64,000 nt of DNA from Fidelibacterota bacterium (GCA_046861385.1 JBHHTW010000007.1:1-64000), one strand, 5' to 3'; shown: positions 23,554 to 40,572, numbered from the stretch's first letter. Notes: generated from the sequence alone by a model not told the origin. Translations and numbers: made by a program.

Positions 23554-25002
23554 TTACCAATCGTCTCCGTATGGGCCGCCGTAGATACCCATATCATTTC
23601 TTGTCCCATTAACGTCTTTGAATATATCTCCAGGATGGCCTGCGTTCAAAGCTGGAGAATCAGTAAATAAATGATAGTCTCCTCTATCTGCATTCATAAA
23701 AAGTGGATTTAAATTAATATTACCATTTCCTGAAACAACCCTGAATTCGTCCGAGAGCGTATAAATCGCGGAGGTTGGGTATAATTTATAATCATCTTCA
23801 CCGCCATTTTTCCATACAATTGAATTTAAGATTGTAATATTTCCATTATTAACAATAGCGCCGCTATTACTTCTACTGGATGTTATGTTCCTGTAAAAAA
23901 CACAATTCACTATATTGGCATTGCCGGTTTCTCCAATAATTAATGCACCTCCAAGTCCGCTTCTGTTTTTCTCAAATAAACAATTATTTATTTCTGTATC
24001 AGAATTGATGATTATAGCTCCACCTTCCCTATTTGTACTATTCCGGTTAAATTTTGTATTACGAATGAATAATTGGCCATCATGTTGATAAAGGCCCGCG
24101 CCGGATCCTGGTATTTGCGTATAGTTATTTCTAATGTTGCAATTAATAATTGAATTTTGCCCATCAGATAAGATGCCTCCTCCTCGTACTTGAGAAATAT
24201 TATTCACGAGAGAGCATTTCTCTAACAAAGCATTGTTTTGTAAATACACCCCACCGCCCATACCGTACGGATAAATCTGTGTTTTAGTATCATTAGAAAC
24301 CGCCCGGTTACTTCGGATAATACAATTTCTGATGATTGCAGTACCGCTGGCATGAACGCCGCCTCCAGCCAACGCGCGGCCTCCAGTGACTGTGAATCCA
24401 ACGAGCTGACCTTTATTGATCGTCACCACAGATCCCGTGTCTGGAGCTGCCCCCAACACTGTAATTTCCGGTATTAAAACACCTCGAATAACTACTTTTT
24501 TATCTAGAAATTTAAAATGATCCCGATAAAGACCGGGGAAAACATTTATAGTATCTCCATCATCAATAAAGTGAGAATCAAAAGCCAGCTGCAAAGAATC
24601 ATATTGTTCCGGAACTTTTATAGAAGACACGTTTGGAACCTCCAGCGGCGCTGACAGGGCATGGATAAATTGATCATCTTGATCGACCATACGAACCCGA
24701 TATTGAAAGGTGACGTCATCATCAATTATATCCGTATAGGTCACTTGTAAGGAGTCTGGAATATGAACCCTTTCTTCCCAAACCATACTATCGCCATAGG
24801 CGGCGGAACGTTCAACTAAAAATTCCTTAAACTTCGTTATCGTTATTTTAGACCATTCTATGGTTACAGCGGTCGGAATATATATTTTTTCTCCATTATA
24901 GTTATGGGTAACCCTAAATATGTCGTCTTCCGTCGGCTGGGTGGAAAAGGGCGATTCACATGCAAGAAAAATTATTACGAATATCAGGGCTAATCGCTTC
25001 AT
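23554..25002 (-). CDS. Lipoprotein with FN3-like domain and right-handed parallel beta-helix repeats
   Basis: Lipobox FLAC; repeated GGG/GGA.. and N-rich beta-helix turns; DYHL..DSPALNAG.P...DMG.YGGP tail. Confidence 0.82.
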   Translation of the reverse strand: MKRLALIFVIIFLACESPFSTQPTEDDIFRVTHNYNGEKIYIPTAVTIEWSKITITKFKEFLVERSAAYGDSMVWEERVHIPDSLQVTYTDIIDDDVTFQYRVRMVDQDDQFIHALSAPLEVPNVSSIKVPEQYDSLQLAFDSHFIDDGDTINVFPGLYRDHFKFLDKKVVIRGVLIPEITVLGAAPDTGSVVTINKGQLVGFTVTGGRALAGGGVHASGTAIIRNCIIRSNRAVSNDTKTQIYPYGMGGGVYLQNNALLEKCSLVNNISQVRGGGILSDGQNSIINCNIRNNYTQIPGSGAGLYQHDGQLFIRNTKFNRNSTNREGGAIIINSDTEINNCLFEKNRSGLGGALIIGETGNANIVNCVFYRNITSSRSNSGAIVNNGNITILNSIVWKNGGEDDYKLYPTSAIYTLSDEFRVVSGNGNINLNPLFMNADRGDYHLFTDSPALNAGHPGDIFKDVNGTRNDMGIYGGPYGDDW

Positions 25003-35831: not shown

Positions 35832-36317
35832 TTAAATTTCTTCAAACACGCCTGTCTTTTTATTCTTTTGGACTTTATCATAATTAAAACATTTTCCATT
35901 CATGGCAATATATACACCGCGGGGTAGGCTTTGGACAAAAGCAATGGCTGCTCCCAAGTTAAACAGACCGTCCGAGCTACCAAATTTAAAGGGAATCATT
36001 GCCCCTGTGAGAACAATGGTTTTTCCCAGATGCCTATCTGCCAGTAATTTTGCCGTTGTGGTCATGGTGTCGGTTCCGTGGGTAATAATAATTTGATCTT
36101 CTTCAACGCTTTTGCAATTGTCTACAATCAGTTTTCGATCTGAATCGGTCATATCAAGACTGTCTATCATCATTAGTTTGTGGATGTTCACATCTATTTG
36201 CGCTCTCCCAAGTTTGAGGATTTCTCGCATATGTGTGTCTTGGAAATAAAGCTTTCCATTTATTTCATCGTACTCTTTATCAAAAGTACCTCCCGTAATA
36301 AAGATTTGTATTGCCAT
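35832..36317 (-). CDS. Asparaginase N-terminal domain protein (short asparaginase)
   Basis: TGGTFDK and THGTDTM catalytic motifs; LTGAM.P. Confidence 0.88.
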   Translation of the reverse strand: MAIQIFITGGTFDKEYDEINGKLYFQDTHMREILKLGRAQIDVNIHKLMMIDSLDMTDSDRKLIVDNCKSVEEDQIIITHGTDTMTTTAKLLADRHLGKTIVLTGAMIPFKFGSSDGLFNLGAAIAFVQSLPRGVYIAMNGKCFNYDKVQKNKKTGVFEEI

Positions 36318-37799: not shown

Positions 37800-39389
37800 T
37801 CATTCCTTATATCCGTCTAATTCCCTAGCAGAAGGATCAATGACATCTGTCCACTTTGGCATCCAGAAATGGGGGATAAGGTTATCATGCTTTCCGAAGA
37901 ATTGTTGATATACTTTTCGATAATAATAACTCTCTTTCAATAGTGGTTGGCAGTGATTGATTTTTACTGATTCGCGCTCAAATTCTTCTTCAGTTATTAT
38001 TTTGTCCACATGGTTTTGGATAATAGTATGCCAGGATTTATTGGCATTACTGACGCCATCAGAGAAAGCGCATTTTCTTCTCCAAAGAATATCCTTCGGA
38101 AGCAAATCCATTCCATCAAAAGCCTTTCGTAATAAATGTTTCTCCAGCCGTTTTTTACCATCAAACGTTTTTAGGTCTGGCGGGATGGATAAATAGTATT
38201 TCACGAACGCTTTATCTAAAAATGGTGTCCGTGCTTCCAACCCGTTTGAACTGATGCTGCGGTCGGAACGAAGCACATCAAACAAATACAATTCTTTCAC
38301 CAACCGTTCGCTCTCTGTTTGCAGCTCGGCTGGTGAAGGAGCGTTTTTGAGATACACATAACCACCGCATACTTCATCCGCGCCGTCGCCATTGAACACA
38401 ACTTTGCAATCAGAATTTTCACGGATAAACTTTGATACGAGATAATTACCCACGCTGGCCCGAACGGTGGTAGTGTCAAAAGATTCAATATTATAGATCA
38501 CTGTTTCAATGGCATCCAAAAAATCCTTTTCAGACACCTCAATTTGATGATGGATTGTACCAATATGATCTGCGGTTCTTTGGGCATATTTCAAATCAAT
38601 GCTGCCTGTAATTCCAATGGAAAATGTTTTTAATGTATTGCCGTTACTGTGTTGAGCTACCAATGCCGTGATCAGACTTGAATCCAACCCTCCGGACAAA
38701 AGACAGCCAATTTCCCGTTCTGCCATCATGCGTTTTTCCACAGCTTTTGACAAATATTTCCGAATACCATCACAAATTTCATTTTCACGGCCGGTTGCAA
38801 TTCCATCACCATTGTAATGAAAATAACGATGGAAAGAATCCGGGGTTTTTGAACTCCACCAGGTTCCCGGCGGAAAAGGTTCAATGGTGTCGCATAGGTT
38901 AATCATTGGTTTTGCTTCGGAAGCAATATAATGATCTTCGTCTTTTCTGCCAATGAATCCCGGGCGAACTCCAACGGGGTCACGACCCGCGTAAAAAGAG
39001 TCCGATGTACTATCATGCAAAACAAACATAAAAACGCCATCCAGTTCTTTTACTGTTTTCTCCATGCCAAATTCCTTAAACAAAAACAGGATGATTTCAC
39101 AGTCCGATCCGGTAGTTAGCTGAAACCCGTATTTTTCAGCTAATTGTTTATAATTATAAATCTCTCCGTTGCAGACCAAGGTTAACGAGGGGTCCTGGGG
39201 GTGTTGCATGGGTTGGTCTCCCGTTTCAGAAACACCCATAATCGCCAGGCGGTGAAAGATAAAAATTCCCCTTCCTTCCAATATTTTTACATGGGTGTTT
39301 TCCGGGCCCCGGTATTTGATTTTGCCAGCGTGTTCCGCCAGGCTGTCTGGCGTTTGATTTGATCCCAAGTAACTAAAAATTCCACACAT
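37800..39389 (-). CDS. asnB: Asparagine synthetase (glutamine-hydrolysing)
   Basis: N-terminal MCGI, HRLAI, NGEIYN, LSGGLDSS, PFLD motifs. Confidence 0.95.
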   Translation of the reverse strand: MCGIFSYLGSNQTPDSLAEHAGKIKYRGPENTHVKILEGRGIFIFHRLAIMGVSETGDQPMQHPQDPSLTLVCNGEIYNYKQLAEKYGFQLTTGSDCEIILFLFKEFGMEKTVKELDGVFMFVLHDSTSDSFYAGRDPVGVRPGFIGRKDEDHYIASEAKPMINLCDTIEPFPPGTWWSSKTPDSFHRYFHYNGDGIATGRENEICDGIRKYLSKAVEKRMMAEREIGCLLSGGLDSSLITALVAQHSNGNTLKTFSIGITGSIDLKYAQRTADHIGTIHHQIEVSEKDFLDAIETVIYNIESFDTTTVRASVGNYLVSKFIRENSDCKVVFNGDGADEVCGGYVYLKNAPSPAELQTESERLVKELYLFDVLRSDRSISSNGLEARTPFLDKAFVKYYLSIPPDLKTFDGKKRLEKHLLRKAFDGMDLLPKDILWRRKCAFSDGVSNANKSWHTIIQNHVDKIITEEEFERESVKINHCQPLLKESYYYRKVYQQFFGKHDNLIPHFWMPKWTDVIDPSARELDGYKE

Positions 39390-39417: not shown

Positions 39418-39453
39418 AAAAAAACCCTCGCTACTTTCGTTTGCGAGGGTTTT
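39418..39453 (-). terminator. Attenuator terminator upstream of asnB
   Basis: Minus strand AAAACCCUCGC-11 nt-GCGAGGG-U7, ending 28 nt before the asnB ATG. Confidence 0.85.
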
Positions 39454-39475
39454 GTTTAAAACCAGTGTTTAGTGC

Positions 39476-39550
39476 CTACACAGATTCCCCCGCGCCAATA
39501 TTATTGGCGTTAATATTATTGCGATTGGAGTTATCTGTGAAAAGTATCAT
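39476..39550 (-). CDS. Asn-rich leader peptide MILFTDNSNRNNINANNIGAGESV (putative asnB attenuator peptide)
   Basis: ATG 39550 to TAG 39476; 7 Asn codons within codons 7-17; followed by a terminator and asnB. Confidence 0.8.
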   Translation of the reverse strand: MILFTDNSNRNNINANNIGAGESV

Positions 39551-39597
39551 ACGTTTCTCATGGTCAATTTAGGAATAATTACTCCTAACAAACATTT

Positions 39598-40572
39598 CTA
39601 ATTTTCTGACACCATAAATTTGGCTACGCGATTCTTTACTGGTTTCACTGTCATTAAATAATCATAAATCGCCCCCAGGTCTTCTTCTGTCATTCCCGCG
39701 TAAAACGTCCAAGGCATAACCGTGTTGCCTTCTCCGTCCGGAACTATCATGTTTTTTGCTTCTTTATCTGCATAAGCTTTAAACATTCCAATGAAGTTTT
39801 CCTTGGTTTTGTTGCCCATGCCCGTTTCAAGGTCTGGGGTAATATTTGCAGAAGTGGCAACTGTTCCATTTGGAAATGGAAATTTAAATCCACCGGCATA
39901 ATCCATGCCGGCTATTTTTTGTCCCCGTTTGTCCTGAGGTGTGTGGCAACCAGCGCACCCTGAGATGGTGGTCATATATTTCCCATAGGCGAGATGATCC
40001 GTTTTAACAGGCTCCGGATTGGCTTTAGACGGTTTTGGAATGGTTCGTACAATATATTGCATAGGAAAATTTAATTTCCTTTTTGGAGGTGTATATTCAG
40101 CGGCTTTTAAAGTCCGGATATAAGCCACTATCGAAAATAAATCTTCCTGGCTCAAGCTTGAATAATATTCGTACGGCATGATAGGAAACAGCGCTTCTTC
40201 TGCCTTGTTGACTCCGGAAGTTATTGCTCTTGCCAACTCGCCGTCAGACCAGTCGCCAATAGCATATGGAGTGATGTTTTTAGAATATACTTTCCCAGGA
40301 AGCCCCTTGGACTCGTCAAAGAGTTCTCCTCCTTTTCCTTCTGTACCTGGCTCAATCGGGCCAGAATATTTATTCCAGTTTCTTGTGGCATGACAATCAA
40401 TACATACGGTAACGTGATTTGCCAAGTACTTCCCTCGTTCAATTCTGCTGGGGGTTTGTTCAACCGTGATTTCTTCTGGGGGTCCAACTTTTATTGGGAC
40501 CAGACTGGTACACGCTGATACAATTAATAGAAAAAAGAGGATAGACATTATCCTCTGATTATTTTGGCTCAT
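39598..40572 (-). CDS. Dihaem c-type cytochrome, probable lipoprotein
   Basis: CIDCH and CAGCH motifs, two NITP motifs; lipobox VSAC. Confidence 0.88.
   Translation of the reverse strand: MSQNNQRIMSILFFLLIVSACTSLVPIKVGPPEEITVEQTPSRIERGKYLANHVTVCIDCHATRNWNKYSGPIEPGTEGKGGELFDESKGLPGKVYSKNITPYAIGDWSDGELARAITSGVNKAEEALFPIMPYEYYSSLSQEDLFSIVAYIRTLKAAEYTPPKRKLNFPMQYIVRTIPKPSKANPEPVKTDHLAYGKYMTTISGCAGCHTPQDKRGQKIAGMDYAGGFKFPFPNGTVATSANITPDLETGMGNKTKENFIGMFKAYADKEAKNMIVPDGEGNTVMPWTFYAGMTEEDLGAIYDYLMTVKPVKNRVAKFMVSEN

Follow-up and report, generated by a model that had tools for sequence, protein, structure and literature searches.

The amino acids of textbook attenuation are Trp, His, Phe, Leu, Thr and Ile/Val; asparagine is not among them. 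In Escherichia coli, AsnC activates asnA, and in Firmicutes Asn T-boxes exist. The enterobacterial attenuators trpL, hisL, pheL, leuL, thrL and ilvL have an open reading frame (ORF) enriched in codons for the end-product amino acid, four RNA regions that pair as 1:2, 2:3 and 3:4, an intrinsic terminator just ahead of the biosynthetic gene, and a stop codon placed so that the terminating ribosome masks region 2. The same arrangement is found ahead of asnB in the DNA analyzed here, a 64,000-nucleotide stretch (the window) from a Fidelibacterota bacterium. An Asn-rich ORF has been remarked upon in Staphylococcus aureus, where one report (PMC13009471) calls sORF7 an 'intriguing leader peptide candidate' for its Asn richness and places it ahead of a gene of unknown function.

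An architecture of the trpL/hisL/thrL type had been proposed for the asnB upstream region in the original prediction, and the present analysis supports it. The features of the trpL/hisL class that can be computed, a short leader ORF, enrichment of the cognate codon, an intrinsic terminator, the 2:3 and 1:2 pairings and the geometry of stall and stop sites, are all present (Table 1) and are conserved with asnB across relatives. As judged from the sequence, it is very probable that a ribosome-mediated leader-peptide attenuator couples asnB transcription to the charging of tRNA-Asn.

Table 1. Elements of the asnB leader and its proposed target gene, in window coordinates.
Feature	Positions	Strand	Basis
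Candidate promoter: TTTG (39592-39589), 17 nt, TAAATT (39571-39566)	39566..39592	-	inference
Leader peptide ORF MILFTDNSNRNNINANNIGAGESV, 24 codons + stop	39476..39550	-	ATG..TAG, sequence read
Asn codon cluster, 7/11 codons, proposed stall sites	39500..39532	-	sequence read
Region 1: CACAGAU..CUCC, 5' strand of the anti-antiterminator (1:2) helix	39527..39539	-	folds
Leader hairpin GCCAAU-AAU-AUUGGC in the last Asn codons, abutting region 2	39494..39508	-	fold
Region 2: GCGGGGG (39493-39487, antiterminator strand) + AAUCUGUG (partner of region 1)	39479..39493	-	fold
Region 3: AAAACCCUCGC, terminator 5' arm and antiterminator partner of region 2	39443..39453	-	fold
Region 4: GCGAGGG (39431-39425) + U7 (39424-39418), terminator 3' arm and tail	39418..39431	-	fold
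asnB, glutamine-hydrolysing asparagine synthase, 529 aa, proposed regulated gene	37800..39389	-	profile matches

The predicted 24-aa ORF at 39550-39476, with 7 Asn in 11 codons, was borne out to the base, and all of the coordinates given for the locus were right when read on the minus strand. The Asn codons are numbers 7, 9, 11, 12, 14, 16 and 17 of the leader (5 AAT and 2 AAC), and 86 nt separate the leader stop from the asnB ATG. Because such codons could accumulate by chance, the rarity of the ORF was evaluated within its own genome (2.43 Mb, 39% G+C), where Asn accounts for 5.5% of the residues in open frames of at least 250 aa. When ATG-initiated ORFs of 12-60 codons were counted in all six frames, the leader was the only one among 26,898 to contain at least 7 Asn per 12 codons. 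This uniqueness shows that the Asn-rich leader ORF is not a chance product. Six further short ORFs reached 6 Asn in a 12-codon window; the two that are only 14 aa long (C103:5856 and C28:1588) were inspected and rejected, both lying within long open frames of the opposite strand. Within its clade the window leader is the one least like a continuous Asn run: Ser, Arg, Ile and Ala intervene between its Asn residues, whereas the leaders of close relatives have Asn runs of 6 or 7. Just upstream lies a mini-ORF of four codons, ATG AGA AAC GTA TGA (39548-39562, minus strand), whose stop overlaps the leader ATG (ATGA); it is either a chance occurrence or may matter for leader initiation.

Folding of the leader RNA confirmed the terminator claimed in the original prediction. 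CCCUCGC (39449-39443) pairs with GCGAGGG (39431-39425), and the helix is extended by AAAA/UUUU and followed by U7, the complete strands being AAAACCCUCGC (39453-39443) and GCGAGGGUUUU. The structure has a folding energy of -17.8 kcal/mol (z = -6.3) that none of 200 shuffled sequences equalled, and its last U is 28 nt from the asnB ATG (39389). A simple terminator scan of the window did not list it, because its 11-nt loop exceeds the scanner limit of 8. The competing pairing of GCGGGGG (39493-39487) with CCCUCGC (39449-39443), said to be complete at 7/7 with one G-U and mutually exclusive with the terminator, was also recovered. The 52-nt antiterminator stretch, which encloses a small stem-loop, folds with -15.3 kcal/mol (z = -2.1), an energy matched in 6 of 200 shuffles, so that this fold is only moderately better than shuffled sequence.

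While the 2:3 and 3:4 pairings had thus been seen before, the 1:2 helix had been missed and was found here by folding. It joins CACAGAU..CUCC (39539-39527) to GGGG..AUCUGUG (39490-39479) with an energy of -21.6 kcal/mol (z = -4.8; 0/200 shuffles as good). The fold of the full 211-nt leader consists of the 1:2 helix and the terminator; in an 81-nt stretch that begins past the first Asn codons and ends before region 4, the 2:3 helix is formed instead. A hairpin within the Asn codons is also present, but in the version first described, CGCCAAUA/UAUUGGCG, it would have a 1-nt loop and cannot form. Its foldable form, GCCAAU-AAU-AUUGGC, has 6 bp and a 3-nt loop. Region 2 ends 4 nt ahead of the leader stop codon, which itself starts 8 nt past the last base of GCGGGGG.

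These elements suggest how the leader would operate. Transcription would start a few bases before the leader ORF, and a ribosome would translate the 24 codons while RNA polymerase moves on. When Asn-tRNA(Asn) is scarce, the ribosome would stall at 39532-39500, where it covers region 1 together with the 5' half of the leader hairpin. This would leave region 2 free to pair with region 3 once the latter is made, the terminator would not form, and the polymerase would read through into asnB. When Asn-tRNA(Asn) is plentiful, a ribosome at the stop codon would hide GCGGGGG, regions 3 and 4 would pair, and transcription would end at U7. If the leader were not translated at all, 1:2 pairing would let the terminator form again. 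What is inferred from sequence is the promoter, the translation of the upstream ORF (uORF), the response to asparagine and, for this phylum, the coupling of transcription and translation.

The effect of the ribosome was simulated by hiding all RNA up to 12 nt 3' of the A-site codon, omitting region 4 and folding the rest, for 34 leaders and, in each, for 30 positions of the ribosome along the codons. Whichever Asn codon occupied the A site, the antiterminator formed in 34/34 leaders, with 4-9 bases of the terminator 5' arm paired (7-9 in the window leader). Masked folding thus agrees with the earlier proposal that a stall on the Asn codons permits the antiterminator. With the ribosome on roughly the last 7-9 codons the antiterminator was essentially blocked, again in 34/34, and in every leader the switch fell within about three codons past the last Asn codon. 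In many relatives the minimum-energy fold without a ribosome, region 4 omitted, already favors the antiterminator; by this crude measure, therefore, the rule that no translation means termination is not general.

The distribution of the leader was determined in two collections. The first comprised 61 related genomes, 21 of which had an AsnB orthologue, giving 22 loci; the 20 that included both the N-terminus and upstream DNA were used. In all 20, asnB is preceded by an Asn-rich uORF and then by a G/C hairpin with a T-run. One of the two loci set aside, L021, covers residues 254-529 only. The other, L019 (G051:C1:33542-34999), matches AsnB from residue 40-41 and has 8 in-frame stops (2 TGA, 1 TAG, 5 TAA); it is probably a decaying asnB. 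The named collection contributed 48 loci, of which 40 with a match from residue 1 were used and 8 partial matches were dropped. Pooling gave 60 upstream regions, 46 of them distinct, and 35 of the 46 have an Asn-run uORF and a terminator ahead of asnB, in keeping with the conservation anticipated for orthologous loci. One region (L057) is cut by a contig end that leaves the terminator tail alone visible. The unit is absent from the remaining 10 of 46 (L039, L041, L044, L045, L047, L055, L059, L060, L062 and L064), the last of these being a Bacteroidaceae MAG and the other nine belonging to this phylum or to unnamed MAGs. Between the leader terminator and asnB of locus L003 (~1312-1477) there is an insertion of ~166 bp that the near-identical L002 lacks. 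Its ends are perfect inverted repeats of 19 bp (GAACTCTTTGATAAACCTA...), TATAC is duplicated on its flanks, and it resembles a miniature inverted-repeat transposable element inserted 3' of the attenuator.

A covariance model, R1, was built from 32 Asn leaders. It matched the same 35 of the 46 loci and 0 of the other 11, and five extra matches were reverse complements of terminators. Applied to the window's own genome (G000), R1 found the asnB leader alone (E = 2e-12); the next matches had E >= 0.06, and the four of these weak matches that were inspected were rejected as plain gene 3'-end terminators. A strict regular expression (Asn run plus G-run, C-run, G-run, T6) was dropped; it gave 0 matches in this genome and missed even the window leader, because the Asn codons there are interspersed and region 3 is CCCUCGC. 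When 151 genomes sampled evenly from the phylum were searched, R1 matched 11, and 9 of the 11 matches lie directly ahead of asnB, occurring beyond G000 in four families of the window's order.

The other two of the 11 R1 matches, at E about 4e-4, are different leaders that come from distant families. One (L087, G170:C108:11751-11848, minus strand) has a Leu/Ile-rich uORF and a terminator ahead of ilvD. The other (L086, G073:C1:58595-58698, minus strand) has a Met/Cys-rich uORF (..MGIMMCLMCMY..) and a terminator, and the gene that follows encodes a putative threonine synthase-like protein. Both are like the Asn leader in their design of G-run, C-run, G-run and U-tract but differ in the enriched residues and in the genes downstream; as regulators they are predictions. 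Separately, contig C92 of G000 carries (~24281-24367, plus strand) a 28-codon, Ile/Leu/Val-rich uORF, MKHISLTISDSLINLLILIIIGLVVLTA, ~135 nt ahead of an ilvD orthologue; no U-tract terminator was seen there by eye.

The leader peptides themselves are diverse. Their N-termini are unrelated between clades, the maximum number of Asn per 11-codon window varies from 4 to 10, and the endings are of the forms ..NN.G(V/A)G..V, ..NN..FGMG..(I/F) and ..NNNN(L/M/I)SGG.AL, with two leaders ending in ..NNNN..G.KAL. What the three leader types have in common is an in-frame Asn run, a G-run, a C-run and a second G-run with a U-tract. In 34/34 leaders, a run of G able to pair with the 5' arm of the terminator is located 8-14 nt upstream of where the stop codon ends. 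Such a pattern would be expected if selection acted on the codons and the RNA pairing rather than on a peptide product. The leader hairpin occurs in groups A and B only, and the SGGEAL-type leaders are without it.

Conservation of the pairings was evaluated in A2, a 15-sequence sub-alignment of group-A leaders, and by counts anchored on the C-run in all 34 leaders. The all-clade MAFFT alignment (A1) is out of register for the three leader types and was therefore replaced by these two measures; RNAalifold on A1, which recovered only 4 terminator pairs, was set aside. For the terminated state, made up of the 1:2 helices, the leader hairpin and the terminator, 90.3% of the cells in A2 were paired and 11 of the 32 pairs had changed on both sides. 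None of 500 shuffles reached these values, and controls slid out of register gave 41-53% paired. Relatedness inflates shuffle tests, so that the slid controls are the fairer comparison. Among the individual elements, pairing was 95% in the terminator helix, where both sides had changed in 4 pairs, and 89% in the leader hairpin, where they had changed in 2. The 1:2 helices, whose conservation covers the 15 group-A leaders only, reached 85% and 91%, and 5 of their pairs had changed on both sides. Anchored on the C-run, the terminator had 230 of 238 cells canonical in register, compared with 82-156 when slid. The stop-codon hairpin, taken as one column set, was 61% paired, and no covariation is claimed for it because the subclades use different registers.

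The antiterminator behaves differently from the terminator. It is 93.3% paired in A2 and near-invariant, with 1 pair changed on both sides; across the 34 leaders its four core pairs are canonical in 34/34, and the count of canonical cells is 199 of 238 in register vs. 96-158 when slid. In 34/34 leaders the 3' end of the uORF can form a duplex with the terminator 5' arm, at energies from -7.1 to -17.3 kcal/mol; pairing this good was reached by only 204 of 26,374 30-nt windows taken from the same loci. Because the G-run/C-run helix is mostly invariant and its covariation thin, the support for the antiterminator is conserved complementarity and position. Thus, of the covarying terminator and antiterminator stems looked for in relatives, the terminator does covary, but the antiterminator, although kept in 34/34, covaries little. 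The one clean compensating event among the leaders is a three-way change in the window, where region 3 has G (A in relatives) and regions 2 and 4 both have C (U in relatives). This change turns GVG of the leader peptide into GAG, a replacement of Val by Ala alongside both RNA partners, which shows RNA pairing overruling the peptide sequence.

It was asked whether the terminator might be controlled by something other than a translating ribosome, namely a protein, a tRNA acting on a T-box or a small-molecule aptamer, the Asn codons being incidental. Alternative terminator and antiterminator structures are common to all such classes, and the T-boxes for Asn mentioned above would offer a precedent. 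However, a scan of the asnB leader against Rfam 15 gave no family at its gathering threshold, and the best matches were driven by the terminator. The scores, with gathering thresholds in brackets, were 25.7 for NsiR1 (39), 25.1 for the trpB motif (59), 23.8 for His_leader, RF00514 (49), 22.3 for Leu_leader, RF00512 (50), and 21 for Thr_leader, RF00506 (55), and the T-box model did not match the leader up to E = 10. The ~130 nt from start codon to U-tract seem too few for a T-box with its specifier and T-box domains. Moreover, what three otherwise dissimilar leader types have kept is an in-frame run of Asn codons and the spacing of the stop codon relative to region 2, and control of this kind would leave the run unexplained. 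Control without a ribosome is therefore considered very unlikely.

The position of the locus behind another gene allows a second reading, in which the hairpin and U-tract are the terminator of that gene, the asnB promoter lies downstream and the Asn ORF is a by-product of an AT-rich spacer. A cytochrome c-like gene (40572-39598), on the minus strand like the leader ORF, does stop at 39598, 48 nt ahead of the uORF, and strings rich in AAT and AAC arise easily at 39% G+C. There are also weak promoter-like matches within the uORF, 5 compared with 2.6 +/- 1.8 in shuffled sequence, which is not significant. Against this, the U-tract ends just 28 nt before the asnB ATG, an interval in which no promoter-like site was found. 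In 16 of 33 asnB loci, the closest upstream open frame of 70 aa or more runs on the opposite strand, and it varies among the rest; since the neighbor changes strand and identity between loci while the uORF and terminator stay with asnB, the leader unit travels with asnB. Furthermore, in 34/34 leaders the Asn run shares its frame with a start codon and the stop codon is 8-14 nt past region 2, and the Asn density is unique among the 26,898 short ORFs. A gene-end terminator is thus scarcely credible.

For the leader-peptide attenuator, a candidate promoter is available between the cytochrome c-like gene and the leader ORF, the TAAATT box being ~16 nt before the leader ATG. The TAAATT block and a T-rich block upstream of it are common to the closest relatives (alignment A5), with L005 and L017 deviating at TAAATT. 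The assignment of 39566..39592 as the promoter is a guess. A hairpin, UUAGGA-GUAAUUAU-UCCUAA, which has no U-tract, lies at 39569-39588 (minus strand) right past the cytochrome c stop and overlaps the candidate promoter.

The downstream gene is well suited to such control. AsnB scores 501.4 bits against NCBIfam NF006949 (cut-off 499) and 371.6 bits against TIGR01536 (cut-off 267.1), has the Pfam domains GATase_7 and Asn_synthase, and is the sole match in its genome at E <= 1e-100. Neither asnA nor gatB was found in this genome, which is rated 97.85% complete. AsnRS is present (502.5 bits; cut-off 342.6), as is one tRNA-Asn (GUU). With AsnRS present and gatB and asnA not found, the charging of tRNA-Asn should report free Asn. 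The source of free Asn would be AsnB or uptake only, and sensing of tRNA-Asn charge at the asnB leader would make a sensible feedback loop. About 1.5 kb downstream of asnB on the same strand, after genes of the nitroreductase and ArsC families, a 161-aa protein with an N-terminal asparaginase domain only (Pfam PF00710, 92.9 bits) is encoded at 35832-36317 (minus strand), so that a gene for Asn synthesis and one possibly for Asn degradation are close together. Short-chain L-asparaginases, a family of proteins of ~172 aa, have been described (PMC10949315).

The identity of the enzyme also bears on the idea that the small ORF is not a sensor and that its product is itself functional, for instance as a precursor that an AsnB-like enzyme would modify. 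Lasso cyclases and other RiPP enzymes are members of the asparagine synthase superfamily. Although AsnB homologues are reported to act on peptides in RiPP pathways, the NCBIfam lasso cyclase model gives 113 bits (cut-off 525) and the short ORF is directly ahead of the enzyme gene, this reading is extremely improbable, since AsnB passes the equivalog cut-offs for asparagine synthase B and fails the RiPP enzyme models widely, AsnB is the only Asn route found (with AsnRS present and gatB not found), the peptide N-termini are unrelated between clades and the Asn run varies in length (4-10 maximum per 11 codons), the conserved C-terminal residues are RNA pairing strands that change with their RNA partners (GVG to GAG), and a strong terminator separates the supposed precursor and enzyme genes.

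An Asn leader-peptide attenuator was not found in a full-text literature search, and the suggestion that the Asn version is undescribed therefore held up against the literature and Rfam 15, save for older comparative attenuator surveys, which might hold one. The tables of Vitreschak et al. 2004 (FEMS Microbiol Lett), Lopatovskaya et al. 2010 (Mol Biol) and Merino and Yanofsky 2005 (Trends Genet) could include an earlier prediction. In the accessible portions of three other sources, a survey of premature terminators (PMC2965389) has 0 occurrences of 'asparagine', a reconstruction of amino-acid pathways (PMC9026213) has no attenuator text and a paper on leader genes (PMC4833913) has no Asn case. 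On balance, we lean toward the view that the Asn-codon asnB leaders are an undescribed class of attenuators whose coding part evolves quickly. Within the window's order, the three leader types share only the Asn run, the G-run, the C-run and the terminator.

At the level of annotation, the uORF and the terminator, neither of which had been annotated, explain the asnB upstream region. The uncultured, abundant marine phylum Marinimicrobia (Neomarinimicrobiota) would gain a concrete regulatory element and an indirect sign of transcription-translation coupling. If the attenuator is real, such coupling operates in uncultured Marinimicrobia, and if the class also recurs in several phyla, asparagine would be a regular member of the attenuation repertoire.

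With respect to the systems that tie genes for Asn synthesis or charging to the Asn supply, the asnB leader would serve the same purpose as AsnC/asnA and the Asn T-boxes. However, AsnC is a protein regulator and the Asn T-box is an RNA that binds tRNA directly; neither uses a translated run of Asn codons. With respect to the enterobacterial attenuators, the leader has the same design but would sense Asn, and its host belongs to an uncultured phylum of the FCB group. The Rfam models of the enterobacterial leaders give 21-24 bits on the asnB leader compared with gathering thresholds of 49-55, indicating no sequence relationship. The proposed regulated unit, unlike those of enterobacterial attenuators, begins with one gene, asnB, directly 3' of which no terminator-like site was detected. 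Taken together, the mechanism is a known one, while the Asn specificity and the host lineage are new within the literature searched.
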